Positions 15,616-22,520 are shown, counted from the stretch's first letter. The stretch is 64,000 nt of DNA from an uncultured Thermoleophilia bacterium (GCA_963696935.1 CAVOMB010000060.1:1704-65703), one strand, 5' to 3'. A program made the numbers and translations. Notes: generated by a model from the letters alone, not told the origin.

Positions 15616-16570
15616 TCAGGAGCTCGCGGGGAGCTCCTCGACGTCGGTGTCGTCAAGGAGCTTGGCCGCGAGCGCGGCGTCGAGGACGCCGGCGCCGAAG
15701 CGCTGGGTGTTGGCGGCGCCGGCGGCCAGGCCGTGCCGCAGGCACTCCGGGAGCTTCGAGCTTCTGGAAGCGCGCGCTGATGAAGCCGGCGAGGAACGAG
15801 TCGCCGGAGCCGACCGTGCTGACCACGGTCTCGAGCGGCGCGACGGTGCCGCGGAACACGCGCTGCTTGCGCCCCACCTGGAAGCGGGCCACGCAACCGT
15901 ACTGCGTCTTGATGATGACGTTGCGCGCGCCCATCTCGCAGACGATGCCGGTGGCGTCGACGAGGTCCTGGTCGTCGTGGAACTCGTGGCCGACAAGGTC
16001 CTCGGCCTCGCGCAGGTTGGGCAGCACCAGGCTGGGCTGCGCGCGGACGCCGCGACGCAGAGGCTCGGCGGCGCTGTCGAGGATCACGAAGCAACGGTGC
16101 TTGCGGATGCGCTGCAGCGCGGCCGCGTAGAAGTCCTCCGACATCTTGCGCGGCAGCGAGCCGGCGAGCACGACGAACCGCGCGCCCCTGGCGAGGTACT
16201 CGATCTTCTCGAGCAGGGACTCCGTCTCCGCCTCGGTGACAATGGGGCCGTACTCGACGACCTCGGTCTGCGTCATGGTGGTGGGGTCGACCACGGCCGT
16301 GGAGGTACGCGACTCCCCGCCGATGTGCACGAAGTCATTCAGGATGTTCTCGCGCTGCAGGCCTTCGACGATGAGCTGGCCCGCGCGCCCGCCCACGAGC
16401 CCGGTGATGACCACGGGCTCGCCCAGCGTCTTGAGCGCCCGGGCGATGTTGACACCCTTGCCCCCCGGAAGCGTGAGGCTCTCGGGAGCGCGGTGCCGGA
16501 ACCCGGTCTGGAAGTTGGGAACGGTGAGTGTCTTGTCAACCGCAGCGTTGGGCGTGACGGTGATGATCAC
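15616..16570 (-). pseudogene. 1-phosphofructokinase/PfkB-family sugar kinase with a frameshift near 15750
   Basis: MIITVTPNAAVD, GGKGVNIA, VGSGDSFLAG; C-terminus ECLRHGLAAGAAN is in another frame. Confidence 0.85.
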
Positions 16571-16720
16571 GCGAGGCCTCCTGTGACCTTCGCACAGAAG
16601 CCGGCGCCTGTGCGGCGCCGGCCCTCGGCGGCGCTCAGTATACCACCGCACCGGGACAGGCCCCACCTTGACACTGCCGGAGCGCGGCGATACGTTCAGC
16701 AAGCGTCAACCAAGCGCATT

Positions 16721-16875
16721 CCTCGTTAGGTGAGGCTCCGGCACACATAGAAGCCGTTGCCCGGAAACGTCCAGAGACGCCAACGGGTAGGACAGGCACT
16801 ACCGGCACAAGGTTTTGCCCGAAACGGCTGAGGCTCTGACCTCTACGGTGTGTTGTGCCAAAGCTGGGACGAGTG
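16721..16875 (+). ncRNA. M-box (ykoK) Mg2+ riboswitch
   Basis: CTCGTTAGGTGAGGCTCC..GTTGCCCGGAAACGTCCAGAGACGCCAACGGGT..ACAGG..CACAAGG..GTGCCAAAGCT..ACGAG follows the M-box consensus; lies upstream of Mg transport genes. Confidence 0.95.
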
Positions 16876-16904
16876 AGGATCGCCCCTTCGCTCTGCGCGC
16901 CCGG

Positions 16905-16930
16905 AGCCTCCCCGACAGGGAGGCTTTTGT
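16905..16930 (+). terminator. Riboswitch expression-platform terminator
   Basis: AGCCTCCC-cgaca-GGGAGGCT followed by TTTGT. Confidence 0.85.
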
Positions 16931-16973
16931 ATGTCTGGTGGCTGTACGCCGTCACGCGAGGGAGGTGAGGCCT

Positions 16974-18224
16974 GTGTTCTACCTGAGCAAGCTGCTCGGC
17001 AGTCCCGTCAAGGACGTCGAGAACAAATCCGCCGGGACGCTCCACGACCTGGTGGTCAGTACGAGACAGGCCTACCCGCGCGTGACCGCCGTGAGCGTCA
17101 AGTGGCGCGGCAAGGTGGTCTACGCGCCGTGGGACGCCGTGAGCAGCTTCGAGGAGTCGGGCCTCATGCTGCGCATCCCCGGCTCCGAGCTCGCCGAGCG
17201 TGAGCTCGAGACCGACGAGCTCCTCCTCTCGGCGAGGTTCCTCGACAAGCAGCTGGTCGACACCGAGGGCCGCAAGGTCATCCGTGTCAACGACATCCAG
17301 CTGCTGCGCAACGGGCCCTTCGTGCACGTCGCTGCGGTGGACGTGTCCAGCAACGCCATCCTGCGCCGCGTCGGCCTCGCCATGGTGGGCGAGCGCCTGG
17401 CCAAGGGCCGCCAGAACCCCAAGCCGCACCTGATCGACTGGAAGGACGTCGACATCGAGCAGACCGACGACGCCGCGGTGCGGCTCGCCGTGCCTCAGAC
17501 CAAGCTCGAACTGCTGCACCCCGCAGACATCGCCGAGCTCGTGCACGAGCTCTCTCCGGAGGAGCGGGCGGCGATCTTCGACGCCCTCGAGGACGACCTC
17601 GCCGCCGACACCTTCGAGGAGCTGCACCCGTCGTACCAGGCGTCGCTGCTGCTCGACCTGCCGGACGACAAGGCCAGCGAGATCCTCAACGAGATGTCGC
17701 CGGACGACGCCGCCGACCTGCTGGCGGACCTGCCGGACGACCGCCGCCAGCACTTCATCGCCATGATGGAGAAGGACGACGCCGAGGACATGCGCGAGCT
17801 GTTGAGCTACCCGGAACACTCCGCCGGCGGCATCATGACGACCAACTACGCCTGGGCGCGCCTCGACGACACGGCCTACAAGGCGATCGAGAGGCTGCGC
17901 GAACAGGAAGAAGAGGCGGAGACCGTCTACTACATCTACGTGGTCGACCGCTCCGAGCACCTGCGCGGCGTGTTCTCGCTGCGCGAGCTGGTCATGTCGA
18001 CGCCGGACCGCAAGGTGCGCGAGTTCATGACCGAGAACCCCATCTCCGTGCGCCCCGAGGCCAGCGAAGAAGAGATCACCGAGGTGATCGCCAAGTACAA
18101 CCTGCTCGCCCTCCCCGTCGTGGACCAGGAGGGTGAGCTGCACGGCATCATCACCATCGACGACGCCATCGACCTGGTGCTTCCGCTCGCGTGGAAGAAG
18201 CGCCTGCCGAGGATCTTCCATTGA
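16974..18224 (+). CDS. Soluble MgtE-N/CBS-domain protein with an N-terminal PRC-barrel and no transmembrane pore
   Basis: LHPADIAEL, MSPDDAADLL, YPEHSAGGIMTT, CBS pair (YYIYVVD, LPVVD..GIITIDD). Confidence 0.9.
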   Translation: MFYLSKLLGSPVKDVENKSAGTLHDLVVSTRQAYPRVTAVSVKWRGKVVYAPWDAVSSFEESGLMLRIPGSELAERELETDELLLSARFLDKQLVDTEGRKVIRVNDIQLLRNGPFVHVAAVDVSSNAILRRVGLAMVGERLAKGRQNPKPHLIDWKDVDIEQTDDAAVRLAVPQTKLELLHPADIAELVHELSPEERAAIFDALEDDLAADTFEELHPSYQASLLLDLPDDKASEILNEMSPDDAADLLADLPDDRRQHFIAMMEKDDAEDMRELLSYPEHSAGGIMTTNYAWARLDDTAYKAIERLREQEEEAETVYYIYVVDRSEHLRGVFSLRELVMSTPDRKVREFMTENPISVRPEASEEEITEVIAKYNLLALPVVDQEGELHGIITIDDAIDLVLPLAWKKRLPRIFH

Positions 18225-18234
18225 GGAGGCCTCG

Positions 18235-19509
18235 ATGGCGCAGGCTCAGCGCAGGGTAGGCAGCTTGCGGCACGCCGGGCGCATCGGCCGCACCCGGCTC
18301 CTCGTCATCCTCGCGATGGTGGGGCCCGGCTTCATCGCGGCCAACGCCGGCAACGACGCCGGCGGCATCACGACGTGGTCGGTGATCGGCTCCCGCTACG
18401 GCTACAGCCTGATCTGGCTGCTGGTCCTGATCACGCCGGTCCTCGCCATCGTGCAGGAGATGAACGCCCGCGTCGGAGTGGTCACCGGACGCGGGCTCGC
18501 CGGGCTCATCCGCGAGAACTTCAGCCTCAAGATCACCGCGCTGGCGATCCTCGCCACGGTGATCGCCAACTTCGGCACCACCGTGGCGGAGTTCAGCGGC
18601 GTGGCCGCCGCGAGCAGCCTGTTCCACGTGCCCTCCTTCGTGGCCGTGCCCGTCGTCGCCGTGGGCGTCTGGCTGCTCGTCACGCGCGGGTCGTACCGCA
18701 AGGTGGAGCGCGTGCTGCTCGTCCTCGGCTTCGTGGTCCTGACCTACGTCGTCTCCGGCATCCTGGCCGGCCCCGACTGGGGCGAGGCGCTCCACGGCGC
18801 CACACACCCCTACGTCTCGTGGAACAGCTTATGGATCTTCACCGTCATCGCCGCCATCGGGACCACGCTCACGCCCTGGGGCCAGTTCTTCATCCAGGCG
18901 GCGGTGGTGGACAAGAAGGTCTCGTGGAAGCAGTTCGTGTACACCAAGTACGAGATCTACGCCGGCTCCGTCTTCATGACGACGATCGACTTCTTCATCG
19001 TCATCGCCTGCGCCGCCACGCTCTACAAGGAGGGCGTCGTCGTCCAGTCCGCGGAGGAGGCGGCCCAGGCCCTGGTGCCGTTCCTCGGCGCGGCGGCGCA
19101 GTACCTCTTCGCCGTCGGCCTGCTGAGCGTGTCCGTCCTCGCCGCCGGCGTGCTGCCGCTGGCCACCGCCTATGTGGTCTGCGAGGCGTTCGGCTTCGAG
19201 AGCGGCCTCGACAACTCGTTCCGCGACGCGCCGGTGTTCAACGGCCTCATCACCTTCCTGATGTTCGTGCCGGCGGCCGTGGCCATCATCCCCGGGCTGC
19301 CGCTGGTGAAGGTCATCCTCGTAGCCCAGTCCCTCAACGGCATCTTGCTGCCGGTGATCCTCATCTTCACGCTGCTGCTCATCAACGACCGCCGTGTGAT
19401 GGGGACGCACACCAACGGCAGGATACGCAATGTGATCGCCTGGACCTTCACCATCACGCTCATCGGCATGAGCGCCGTCCTGCTGCTCTCCCCGCTGTTC
19501 ACCTCGTGA
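18235..19509 (+). CDS. Nramp-related Mg2+ transporter (NRMT type), paralogue 1
   Basis: GPGFIAANAGNDAGGI (TM1) and GTTLTPWGQFF (TM6) in place of the Nramp DPGN/MPH motifs. Confidence 0.88.
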   Translation: MAQAQRRVGSLRHAGRIGRTRLLVILAMVGPGFIAANAGNDAGGITTWSVIGSRYGYSLIWLLVLITPVLAIVQEMNARVGVVTGRGLAGLIRENFSLKITALAILATVIANFGTTVAEFSGVAAASSLFHVPSFVAVPVVAVGVWLLVTRGSYRKVERVLLVLGFVVLTYVVSGILAGPDWGEALHGATHPYVSWNSLWIFTVIAAIGTTLTPWGQFFIQAAVVDKKVSWKQFVYTKYEIYAGSVFMTTIDFFIVIACAATLYKEGVVVQSAEEAAQALVPFLGAAAQYLFAVGLLSVSVLAAGVLPLATAYVVCEAFGFESGLDNSFRDAPVFNGLITFLMFVPAAVAIIPGLPLVKVILVAQSLNGILLPVILIFTLLLINDRRVMGTHTNGRIRNVIAWTFTITLIGMSAVLLLSPLFTS

Positions 19510-19525
19510 CCCCGGAGAGCGACAG

Positions 19526-20797
19526 ATGGCGTGGGGCGCCAGGCACCTCGTAGGTCGCCGGCTGGCCGGCCGCATCGGCCGCTCGCGGCTCATGATGCTG
19601 CTCGCGGTGATGGGGCCCGGGCTGATCGCCGCCGCATCCGACAACGACGCCGGCGGCATCACCACGTGGTCGGTCATCGGCTCGCGCTGGGGCTACAGCC
19701 TGCTGTGGCTGCTGGTGATCATCACGCCCATCCTGGCGGTGACGCAGGAGATGGGCGCGCGGATGGGCGCCGTGACCGGCAAGGGCCTGGCGGCGCTCAT
19801 CCGCGAGAAGTTCAGCCTGAAGGTGACGGCGTTCGCCATACTCGCGCTTCTGGTCGCCAACTTCGGCACCACAGTGGCGGAGTTCAGCGGCATCGCCGCC
19901 GCGTTCAGCCTCGCGCACGTGCCGGCTTGGGCGTGCGTGCCGCCGGTGGCCGCCGGCGTGTGGCTGCTGGTCACGCGCGCGAGCTTCCGCAAGGTCGAGC
20001 GCGTGTTCCTGGCCCTCACCGCGGTCTACGCCGCGTACATCGTCGCCGGATTCCTGGCGAAGCCCGACTGGAGCGCGGCGCTGCACGGCGCGGTGCGGCC
20101 GCAGGCGACCATGAGCAGCGTGTGGCTGCTCACCGTGGTCGCCGCCATCGGCACCACCATCACGCCCTGGGGCCAGTTCTTCATCCAAGCCTACATCGTC
20201 GACAAGCGCGTCTCGATCCGCGACTACGTGTACACCCGCATCGAGGTGGTGGTCGGCGCGATCTTCACCGACGCGATCGACTTCTTCATCGTCGTGGCCT
20301 GCGCCGCGACCCTGTACAAGTCGGGGATCGTCGTCGAGACCGCGCAAGAGGCCGCCCGCGCCCTCGAGCCCGTCGCCGGGCGGGCGGCCGAGCTCCTCTT
20401 CGGCTTCGGCCTGCTCAACGTCTCGATCCTCGGCGCGGCGATCCTGCCGCTGACCACCGCCTACGCGATCTGCGAGGCGTTCGGCTTCGAGAGCGGCCTG
20501 GACAAGAAGTTCGACGAGGCGCCCGCGTTCAACGGCATCCTGACGGTGTTCATCGTCGTCCCGGCGCTCGTCGCCATCATCCCGAACCTGCCCTTGGTCA
20601 AGGTGATGCTGCTCAGCCAGGACGTCAACGGGATCCTCCTGCCGATCATCCTCTTCTACGTGCTCAAGATCATCAACGACCCGCACGTGATGGGCGACCA
20701 CGTCAACGGCAGGGTGTACAACACGGTCGCCTGGGCGTTCTCGGCGGTGCTGGTCGGCCTCTCGGTGACGCTGGTCGCGTCGCCGTTCATCTTCTGA
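19526..20797 (+). CDS. Nramp-related Mg2+ transporter (NRMT type), paralogue 2
   Basis: GPGLIAAASDNDAGGI and GTTITPWGQFF. Confidence 0.88.
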   Translation: MAWGARHLVGRRLAGRIGRSRLMMLLAVMGPGLIAAASDNDAGGITTWSVIGSRWGYSLLWLLVIITPILAVTQEMGARMGAVTGKGLAALIREKFSLKVTAFAILALLVANFGTTVAEFSGIAAAFSLAHVPAWACVPPVAAGVWLLVTRASFRKVERVFLALTAVYAAYIVAGFLAKPDWSAALHGAVRPQATMSSVWLLTVVAAIGTTITPWGQFFIQAYIVDKRVSIRDYVYTRIEVVVGAIFTDAIDFFIVVACAATLYKSGIVVETAQEAARALEPVAGRAAELLFGFGLLNVSILGAAILPLTTAYAICEAFGFESGLDKKFDEAPAFNGILTVFIVVPALVAIIPNLPLVKVMLLSQDVNGILLPIILFYVLKIINDPHVMGDHVNGRVYNTVAWAFSAVLVGLSVTLVASPFIF

Positions 20798-20827: not shown

Positions 20828-21826
20828 TCAGTCCCCGCCGCCGGGCGGCGCGGCCTCACTCTCGTCGCGCCGCGGCGTGGCGGCCTCGCCGTCCTCCGCC
20901 TTGTGCGTGCGCGGCTCGACGTGGACGAGCACGTCGGTGTTGGGGATGCAGGCGCGGATGTCGGCCTCGATGTGCTCGGCGATGTCGTGCGCCTGCGTGA
21001 TCGTGAGGTTGTCGTCCACGAGCACGTGCAGGTCGACGTGCCGCCGGCTGCCGGCCCGGCGGGCGCGCAGCTTGTGGTAGCCGCTGATGATGTCTCCCCG
21101 GTGCTCGCGCACGCAGCGGCGGATCACCTCGAGCTCGTCGTCGGGCAGCGTCTCGTCGAGCAGCACGCGCGTGGACTGCATGACCAGCTCGTAGCCCGTG
21201 TGGATGATGAGCACCGCCACGGCGATGGCCGCGATGGGGTCGAAGTAGGACCAGCCGGTGATCTTGACCAGCAGCAGACCGCCGGCCACGCCGAACGAGG
21301 TGTACACGTCGGTCGTCAGGTGGGCGGCGTCGGCCTCGAGCGCCGCCGAGTCGGTGCGCCGGGCCGCCGGGTAGAGGACCTTTCTCGAGACGTACAGGTT
21401 GACGAGTCCCGAGACGACCATGACGCCGATGCCGAGCCACACGTGGTCCAGCGTGGGGCCGTCGATGATCTTGGTGACGCCCTCGAAGATGATGACGCCG
21501 GCGGCGGCGATGATGAGCAGCGCCTCGATGACGCCACTCAGGTTCTCGACCTTCTCGTGGCCGTACTGGTGGCTCTCGTCCGGGGGCTGCGCCGCCTGGC
21601 GCACCGACCAGAAGGCGATGATCGCCGCCACGAGGTCCGAGCCGGAGTGCAATGCCTCCGAGATGATGGCGATGGACCCGGAGAGGATGCCTACGGTGAG
21701 CTTGAAGACGATGAGGACCGCGTTGGACGCGATCGAGGTCGCGGCGGCGCGCGACTTGAGCTTGTGGTTGAGGCGGTCGTCGGCCGGAGCGGCCGGATCA
21801 GTCGACTTGTGCGCCTTCGTCGGCAT
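20828..21826 (-). CDS. Cation diffusion facilitator (FieF-like)
   Basis: SEALHSGSD, HQYGHEKVE, ADAAHLTTD, HDIAEHIE, VLVHVEP. Confidence 0.92.
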   Translation of the reverse strand: MPTKAHKSTDPAAPADDRLNHKLKSRAAATSIASNAVLIVFKLTVGILSGSIAIISEALHSGSDLVAAIIAFWSVRQAAQPPDESHQYGHEKVENLSGVIEALLIIAAAGVIIFEGVTKIIDGPTLDHVWLGIGVMVVSGLVNLYVSRKVLYPAARRTDSAALEADAAHLTTDVYTSFGVAGGLLLVKITGWSYFDPIAAIAVAVLIIHTGYELVMQSTRVLLDETLPDDELEVIRRCVREHRGDIISGYHKLRARRAGSRRHVDLHVLVDDNLTITQAHDIAEHIEADIRACIPNTDVLVHVEPRTHKAEDGEAATPRRDESEAAPPGGGD

Positions 21827-22520
21827 GCAGCAGGCCCTCCCGTCGCAAGATATCGACGAGGGCCCTCCCGGCCAGTGCGCGGTGGCTGGCCTGGTCCTTG
21901 GCATCCTGCGGCCACTCGGCCACGGAGAGGTCCGACCCTTCGGGGATGAAGACGGGGTCGTAGCCGAACCCGCCCTCGCCGCGCGGCGCCTCAGCGATGG
22001 CGCCCCACCAGTGTCCCGTTGCGGTGTAGTGTGTCATGTCCGGCGCGACGGCGACAACCGAGCAGACGAAGCGGGCGCGGCGCGCGACGGGGCCGGCGAA
22101 GCCGGCCAGCTCGCGCAGCAGGCGCTCGTAGTTGGCGGCATCGGCGCCGGGCCCGTCCACGCCCGCGTAGCGGGCGCTGGTGACGCCCGGCGCCCATTCC
22201 AGGGCCTCGACCTCCAGGCCGGAGTCGTCGGCGAGGTAGAGCACCTGCTCGTCCGGCCGCAGGCCCAGCTGCTCGAGCAGCGCGGGGTCGGCCGTGACCG
22301 CCCGCGCCAGCCCCTCCGCCTTGCCGAGGGCGTTCTCCACAAACGACTCGACGCCCTCGGGCGGCAGCTCCACGCCGGCCGGCATGACGTCCACGCGGCA
22401 CGGCGCCAGGATCGCGCCGAACTCCTTGGCCTTGTGGCGGTTGCCGGTGGCGAGGACGAAGCGCGTAAGCGATGCTCCTTCGGCGCTCCGCTCAGAGCTC
22501 GGGCTACGTGGAGCTTTCAC
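21798..22520 (-). CDS. rdgB: Non-canonical purine NTP pyrophosphatase (RdgB/Ham1)
   Basis: [38 protein letters not shown]; GTGA overlap with the rph stop. Confidence 0.93.

Follow-up and report, generated by a model that had tools for sequence, protein, structure and literature searches.

A magnesium-riboswitch operon of an uncultured Thermoleophilia bacterium joins a pore-less MgtE relative to a duplicated NRMT transporter

Introduction

A 64,000-nt stretch of DNA from an uncultured Thermoleophilia bacterium (GCA_963696935.1 CAVOMB010000060.1:1704-65703; hereafter the window, with positions counted from its first letter) carries at 16,721-20,797 an M-box riboswitch followed by three genes: G1, a soluble relative of the cytosolic half of the Mg2+ channel MgtE, and N1 and N2, two Nramp-related Mg2+ transporters (NRMT, also NrmT). 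The locus is probably an operon of the mgtE-fragment/nrmT type for Mg2+ import, attenuated by its M-box, in which the NRMTs would be independent carriers and G1 a sensor acting on them in trans. As such it adds a well-preserved case to a known type of operon, with a transporter that was duplicated within the lineage, and is no new kind of system. The constant companion of NRMT genes, here and in other genomes, is the MgtE-like partner and not a second NRMT.

M-box-regulated Nramp-related Mg2+ transporters were reported by Shin et al. 2014, PLoS Genet 10:e1004429 (PMC4072509). In that paper most members of the NrmT group, often under M-box control, have an adjacent gene with homology to MgtE's N-terminal cytoplasmic domain, and the authors speculated that this fragment provides feedback regulation in the cytoplasm or is a chaperone. 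An earlier reading of the window made from its sequence alone (the sequence-only reading) did not know such a modular architecture to be characterised; the pairing and the feedback idea were already in print. An NRMT of Eggerthella lenta, EleNRMT, was shown by Ramanadane et al. 2022, eLife 11:e74589 (PMC8806188) to be a monomeric, proton-uncoupled Mg2+/Mn2+ transporter, in which D55, G58, T224 and Q379 shape transport and E133 is retained. That paper does not discuss a partner protein, and nowhere in its text do the terms 'CBS', 'operon' and 'riboswitch' appear. The MgtE-like partner is likewise not treated in the later SLC11 papers examined, and no paper was found in the literature searched combining PRC-barrel, MgtE and CBS.

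Results

Organisation of the operon and its leader

The operon and its leader comprise the following features.

16715-16884, + strand: M-box (ykoK-type) Mg2+ riboswitch aptamer (Rfam RF00380)
16901-16933, + strand: expression platform with intrinsic terminator hairpin (sequence and minimum free energy fold)
16974-18224, + strand: G1, GTG start, soluble protein of 416 amino acids (aa) with two PRC-barrels, MgtE_N and a CBS pair (Pfam)
18235-19509, + strand: N1, NRMT-type Nramp transporter, the derived paralogue, 424 aa (Pfam Nramp, 287 bits)
19526-20797, + strand: N2, NRMT-type Nramp transporter, the conservative paralogue, 423 aa (Pfam Nramp, 293 bits)
20763-20785, + strand: terminator-like hairpin overlapping the 3' end of N2 (consensus scan only)

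The aptamer matches RF00380 at 144.2 bits (gathering 44; E=1.2e-32) over the full model, positions 1-169 of 169, and begins 6 nt upstream of the start given in the sequence-only reading. It is present as a single copy in the 3.04 Mb assembly from which the window comes, and of the 51 Thermoleophilia loci with DNA upstream of the orthologous operon, 50 have an M-box there. Downstream of the aptamer, the terminator stem (16903-16912 / 16918-16927) is made of GGAGCCUCCC, the loop CGACA and GGGAGGCUUU, and a U-tract follows to 16933; the minimum free energy fold is a 10-bp hairpin and then UUUUGU. This terminator, 16903-16933, is absent from the output of a simple consensus terminator scan. Aptamer bases 16732-16741 have their exact reverse complement in the left arm of the terminator (16901-16910, CCGGAGCCUC), which could therefore take part in an antiterminator. 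From this 10-nt complementarity, a choice between antiterminator and terminator of the usual M-box type would be expected. At high cytosolic Mg2+ the aptamer would fold, the terminator would form and transcription would stop; at low Mg2+ the aptamer strand 16732-16741 would pair with the left arm of the terminator, and G1, N1 and N2 would be co-transcribed.

The three genes are tightly packed, with intergenic gaps of 10 nt (G1 to N1) and 16 nt (N1 to N2) and a ribosome-binding site (RBS) in each; the RBS of G1 is GGGAGGTGAGG. The hairpin at 20763-20785 may possibly mark the end of the operon, and the consensus scan found two sites against 1.3 expected by chance. The sequence-only reading had described an M-box-controlled Mg2+ uptake operon, a soluble MgtE-N/CBS protein devoid of a transmembrane (TM) domain and two tandem Nramp-fold transporters with NDAGG and TPWGQFF motifs. 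This description holds for every element, and both motifs are present in N1 and N2 alike.

G1 as a pore-less relative of MgtE

In Pfam, G1 matches PRC (PF05239; residues 1-61, 35.6 bits against a gathering threshold of 21.2), MgtE_N (PF03448; 102 bits) and two CBS domains (PF00571; 71.8 bits). The N-terminal PRC-barrel region had been overlooked in the sequence-only reading. The MgtE TM domain, PF01769, finds no match in G1, and the NCBIfam mgtE profile TIGR00400 gives 200.9 against a cut-off of 232.75 and is covered only at positions 24-251, the cytosolic part. No 19-residue window of G1 exceeds a hydrophobicity of 1.6 (maximum 1.25), and G1 has no TM segment. G1 is therefore not an MgtE channel and is a relative of its sensor half only.

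Residues 177-402 of G1 align to the cytosolic domain of T. thermophilus MgtE (E=8.8e-39). The AlphaFold2 (AF2) model, built on 72 homologues, has a mean predicted local distance difference test (pLDDT) score of 83, with values above 90 for residues 1-90. It consists of beta barrels at 11-66 and 82-123, followed by the N domain, which is helical, then the CBS pair and, at the C terminus, a short helix, and its C-terminal half superposes in Foldseek on the MgtE cytosolic structure 5x9g_C with a TMt of 0.86 and a root-mean-square deviation of 1.9 A. The second barrel also matches PF05239 in the homologue from L151 (residues 91-134). The C-terminal tail is basic (WKKRLPRIFH), and the form WKKRLPR is common to many, not all, lineages.

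Ligands of the MgtE Mg2+ sites were assigned by Maruyama et al. 2018 (PMC5882242). Using these assignments, conservation was counted in 72 G1 homologues from many phyla.

Mg4: MgtE D91 and D247 correspond to G1 D244 and D397, conserved in 67/72 each
Mg6: MgtE D95 corresponds to G1 D248, conserved in 72/72
Mg7: MgtE E59 corresponds to G1 D212, D or E in 62/72
Mg5: MgtE D250 corresponds to G1 D400, D or E in 53/72
Mg5: MgtE D226 corresponds to G1 N376, N in 56/72 and D in 5/72
Mg2/Mg3 (plug helix): MgtE E258 and D259 correspond to G1 K408 and K409, K or R in 51/72 and 36/72

By this pattern of ligand conservation G1 retains the sensor sites lying between the N domain and the CBS domains, and the part that contacts the pore has been replaced. 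Judged from its sequence, G1 descends from an MgtE-type channel as a soluble protein that has lost the pore and kept the N/CBS Mg2+ sites. Searches of its own genome (assembly 82.6% complete) found no MgtE pore domain, so that the assembly offers no MgtE pore for G1 to serve.

Compared with T. thermophilus MgtE (PDB 2YVX/2ZY9; cytosolic domain 2YVY, 5X9G), G1 shares the N domain, the CBS pair and the ligands of Mg4, Mg6 and Mg7. Unlike MgtE, it is without the TM pore, carries the basic tail with K408/K409 in place of the plug-helix residues E258/D259 (Mg2, Mg3), and has about 175 extra N-terminal residues that form two PRC-like barrels. Its presumed target also differs, being a LeuT-fold carrier that is unrelated and has a gene of its own.

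N1 and N2 as NRMT transporters

N1 and N2 are 63% identical and both score far above the cut-off of Nramp PF01566 (29.8). N2 matches EleNRMT (7QIA) with E=3.7e-103, whereas matches to MntH structures are at 9e-21 or weaker; the alignment to EleNRMT (PDB 7QIA/7QIC/7QJI/7QJJ) extends over residues 21-416, and N1 is 42% identical to EleNRMT. The binding-site signature of NRMTs consists of D-x-G-G in TM1 (Gly for Asn), Thr for Ala in TM6, the lack of Met-Pro-His, and Gln in TM10. Both proteins carry it as NDAGG, GTT(L/I)TPW and Q, invariant in both paralogue clades. Equally invariant in the two clades are the equivalents of EleNRMT D55, G58, E133, T224, W229 and Q379, all kept in N1 and N2. At the Met-equivalent position of TM6, Thr is found here (TPW) in place of the Ala of EleNRMT (APW); Thr occurs in 27/72 other NRMTs.

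The two proteins differ just ahead of the binding site, N1 reading ANAGNDAGG and N2 AASDNDAGG in TM1. This difference (ANAGND versus ASDND), pointed out in the sequence-only reading, is real and does not point to a new binding site. The Asp of DNDAGG in N2 is the state of 78% of other NRMTs, and the Gly of N1 occurs in EleNRMT as well. The genome has one CorA and, next to N1 and N2, a single further Nramp gene of the canonical kind, three Nramp genes in total.

Pairing of the sensor with NRMT across genomes

An NRMT gene comes directly after G1 at each of the 54 Thermoleophilia loci that have a full or partial orthologue of it. In a sample of 80 NRMT loci that spans Bacillota, Chloroflexota, Armatimonadota, Patescibacteria, Bacteroidota, Spirochaetota, Thermodesulfobacteriota, Myxococcota and further groups, about 70 have a PRC+MgtE_N+CBS gene directly upstream and another 3-4 have one within 1 kb. 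Among 401 evenly drawn Actinomycetota genomes, 88 have both the G1 N-terminal region and NRMT, 2 have G1 alone, 4 NRMT alone and 307 neither, which corresponds to an odds ratio of about 3400, uncorrected for phylogeny. Co-occurrence in other genomes, which the sequence-only reading had named as a check on its proposal, is thus found both in these genomes and among the 80 loci. Such adjacency and co-occurrence are typical of physically interacting partners. In a homologue search with G1, the PRC+MgtE_N+CBS architecture was confirmed among the matches listed, all of at least 75% identity.

The M-box is not a universal feature of the cassette and was rejected as such. Using nhmmer, it was found only in Actinomycetota, Bacillota and one Armatimonadota locus, and 15 M-box-negative loci were confirmed negative by cmscan.

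The form of the partner varies beside the 93 NRMT genes of the 401 Actinomycetota genomes. A short, soluble-type partner lies upstream of 38. Upstream of 29 is a long partner (open frame of at least 590 aa) whose C-terminal extension shares homology with the TM domain of MgtE and lacks its GGNxGxQ motif. A small PRC-only gene lies directly downstream of 18, in some of the Actinomycetota families, and 13 have no partner within 4 kb. Examples of the long and the PRC-only forms are the following.

L146:2988-4826, - strand: long PRC-MgtE_N-CBS protein (P0275) directly upstream of NRMT
L151:964-2796, + strand: long PRC-MgtE_N-CBS protein directly upstream of NRMT
L150:2067-2642, - strand: small PRC-barrel-only gene directly 3' of NRMT
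L151:4014-4694, + strand: small PRC-barrel-only gene directly 3' of NRMT

In the two long proteins, of 610-612 aa, about 190 C-terminal residues are homologous to the MgtE TM domain (PF01769 sub-threshold at 23.6 bits, or undetected), and the GGNxGxQ of TM2 has been lost, with RAADEVSS in its place. From their sequences they look like membrane 'pseudo-channel' anchors beside NRMT. They agree with G1 in N-terminal architecture and in their slot directly upstream of NRMT, whereas G1 has lost the TM-homologous part entirely. G1 looks like the end point of a series that would run from PRC-MgtE through a degenerate membrane anchor to a soluble sensor. In one Actinomycetota family, NRMT is adjoined only by a PRC protein and a long PRC-MgtE-like gene is on another contig.

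The genome under study also encodes an orphan paralogue of G1 with PRC-like, MgtE_N and CBS regions, P0276 (424 aa, tail WKQRLPR), on contig C103 (L145:3382-4656, - strand). Its neighbours are an amidohydrolase on one side and, on the other, a divergent xanthine/uracil permease plus a Na/Ca exchanger. The paralogue is conserved in the same-genus genome G382. The neighbouring 212-aa open reading frame (ORF) at L145:2659-3297 is Ala/Arg/Gly-rich, has no Pfam match and was taken as a spurious high-GC ORF.

Duplication history of N1 and N2

A tree of 135 NRMTs places the N1 orthologues (43 rows, 99% support, long stem) and the N2 orthologues (21 rows, 95% support) as sisters inside a single Thermoleophilia clade with 100% support, and the nearest outgroups have a single NRMT. 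On this topology the pair is the product of a tandem duplication within Thermoleophilia. Between the two clades 31 sites are fixed differently, and at most of them N2 holds the residue common in other NRMTs. No tandem NRMT was found outside Thermoleophilia among the sampled NRMT loci, all of which are single-copy.

Related species keep the pair unevenly. The arrangement is G1-N1 in 32 of 54, G1-N2 in 13 and G1-N1-N2 in 9, one of the nine with a frameshifted N2, and at least 13 state changes are needed for these architectures on the G1 tree. Relatives thus keep either NRMT or both, and N1 and N2 are therefore largely interchangeable. Whole-genome searches of 22 single-copy genomes (14 N1-only, 8 N2-only) found no second NRMT elsewhere, the only other Nramp being a canonical one at about 28% identity. 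An N2 pseudogene follows an intact N1 at L005:8555-9083; it retains residues 11-128 and 374-423, and an internal deletion has removed 129-373. N1 is split at L043, and at L045 frameshifts occur in N1 and N2 alike. These three loci show ongoing decay of one paralogue. Where both NRMTs exist, dN/dS is about 0.26 alike for G1, N1 and N2, indicating purifying selection. The pair is a lineage-specific duplicate, redundant or mildly specialised.

Two loci with shared synteny come from records assigned to other groups. That in L015 (record titled Deltaproteobacteria bacterium MAG248) has a G1 91% identical to that of Thermoleophilia, and that in L051 (Gemmatimonadales) one of 65% identity. Both bins are probably mislabelled or contaminated; horizontal transfer is less likely.

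Neighbouring genes

The operon is flanked by two genes on the opposite strand.

15653-16702, - strand: PfkB-family hexose kinase or 1-phosphofructokinase (TIGR03168, 236.7 bits)
20828-21904, - strand: CDF-family cation efflux transporter (TIGR01297, 236 bits)

The kinase gene is divergent from the M-box and keeps its upstream position in 48/54 related loci; since its Pfam match begins only at residue 46, the ORF probably starts downstream of the position listed. The CDF gene converges on the 3' end of the operon with 30 nt between stop codons, a position kept in 46/54 related loci, and its best sub-threshold similarity is to MntE and FieF. A functional tie of this transporter to metal balance is possible.

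Discussion

Relation to known operons

The Clostridium acetobutylicum operons Ca_c0685 and Ca_c3329 of Shin et al. 2014 have the layout found here, with an M-box and terminator, then an MgtE-like gene and then an Nramp-related transporter. The present locus differs in its two tandem NRMT genes behind one sensor, in a sensor that is a single 416-aa gene, where that of the Ca_c0685 operon is split in two, and in its host, an uncultured Thermoleophilia actinobacterium. In the passages of Shin et al. consulted, the partner is described just as MgtE-like, with the PRC-barrel region unmentioned.

Proposed regulation of NRMT by G1

Under the reading favoured here, N1 and N2 would each most likely be an independent monomeric, proton-uncoupled importer of Mg2+ (and Mn2+). 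G1 would be a trans-acting cytosolic Mg2+ sensor that restrains these carriers when the cell is Mg2+ replete. By analogy with the cytosolic gate of MgtE, this restraint would add a second, post-translational feedback layer beneath the riboswitch. The gene content, the homologies, the duplication history and the co-occurrence are established, whereas the attenuation, the monomeric transport and, above all, the gating of NRMT by G1 are inferred. Regulation of NRMT in trans by G1 is plausible, with good support from synteny, co-occurrence and the conserved Mg2+ ligands, and was put forward as a hypothesis in 2014.

Several observations weigh against this reading. G1 and NRMT are nowhere known to interact, either physically or functionally. 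In the 2014 study (PMC4072509), NrmT complements a Mg2+-transport-deficient B. subtilis without the fragment, co-expression of the A. capsulatum fragment did not improve rescue, and the A. capsulatum NRMT relative appeared to favour Mn2+; the first two results fit an inhibitory role and are no demonstration of one. EleNRMT transports by itself in proteoliposomes (PMC8806188). The indications that N1 and N2 would be specific for Mg2+ come from binding-site residues and the M-box only. A search with N2 gave 717 cluster representatives at E<=1e-30, and in the best 150 of these 717 NRMT clusters, with a maximum length of 546 aa, no fusion of G1 to NRMT was found. The orphan paralogue P0276 is not adjacent to any Nramp gene, so sensors of this kind may have other or additional targets. 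In the leader, a promoter scan found no sigma-70-like promoter upstream of the operon, and the antiterminator pairing is putative.

A more specific version of trans-regulation can be put forward only tentatively. The PRC-PRC-MgtE_N-CBS protein might be a Mg2+-dependent gating subunit of an SLC11 carrier of the LeuT fold, acting in trans and docking through its PRC barrels. One sensor might then serve the diverged N1 and N2, which could have unequal affinities or respond unequally to the gate. The PRC barrels are proposed as the docking module because PRC-only genes lie downstream of 18/93 NRMT genes and membrane-anchored forms upstream of 29.

Alternative explanations

It is conceivable, if doubtful, that N1 and N2 have become subfunctionalised, so that the tandem pair covers a wider range of uptake. 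They would then differ in their affinity, in the cation carried (Mg2+ as against Mn2+ or some other divalent one) or in how they respond to G1. Subfunctionalisation is suggested by the 31 clade-fixed differences, with N1 derived on a long stem branch, and by G39 versus D39 two residues before the binding-site Asp. The nine species that maintain both copies under equal constraint, and the apparent Mn2+ preference of the A. capsulatum relative in PMC4072509, point in the same direction. However, the residues known to set Mg2+ selectivity are all identical in N1 and N2, which sit behind one shared Mg2+ riboswitch, and the fact that either copy is often lost speaks for considerable redundancy.

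Rather unlikely is a role of G1 that does not involve gating NRMT at all, in which G1 would be a Mg2+/nucleotide-binding buffer, a chaperone or a regulator of some other target, co-expressed through a shared need for Mg2+. NRMTs do function without a G1-type fragment (PMC8806188 and PMC4072509), fusions are lacking among the clusters inspected, the orphan paralogue lies away from Nramp genes in the same genome, and a chaperone role is also mentioned by Shin et al. 2014 (PMC4072509). Near-perfect genome-level co-occurrence speaks against such independence, as does near-universal gene adjacency across distant phyla, lineages without the M-box included; moreover, membrane-anchored forms adjoin NRMT genes.

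G1 could instead be a positive subunit, needed for stability, membrane insertion or low-Mg2+ activation of NRMT and not an inhibitor at high Mg2+, which is improbable. The sensor gene does come first, with tight translational spacing, and EleNRMT alone was unstable and hard to reconstitute until stabilised by consensus mutations (PMC8806188). Against a positive role, heterologous complementation worked without the fragment, and its addition brought no improvement (PMC4072509).

The proposal of the sequence-only reading that N1 and N2 form a heterodimeric transporter gated in trans by the detached MgtE module draws on their adjacency and co-transcription, on purifying selection on both copies where both exist and on the 31 clade-fixed differences, yet it has hardly any credibility left and in its obligate form is excluded by the single NRMT next to G1 in 45/54 related species, by the lack of a second NRMT other than a distant canonical Nramp in 22 such genomes and by the repeated loss of either copy, with N2 decaying in L005, quite apart from the single-copy loci sampled outside Thermoleophilia and from EleNRMT, which is functional as a monomer (PMC8806188).

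Implications for the NRMT family

A proton-uncoupled NRMT carrier, if unregulated, could overload the cell, and NRMT itself lacks a cytosolic domain. For the regulator that is missing here, the conserved MgtE-derived partner is the obvious candidate. If this is true, a sensor that evolved in a channel would control an unrelated LeuT-fold carrier from a separate polypeptide. The present locus adds to this picture that the regulatory Mg2+ ligands of the partner are conserved across phyla. Together with its close relatives it also provides a natural collection of operons with one carrier or with two, suited to the question of redundancy versus specialisation.

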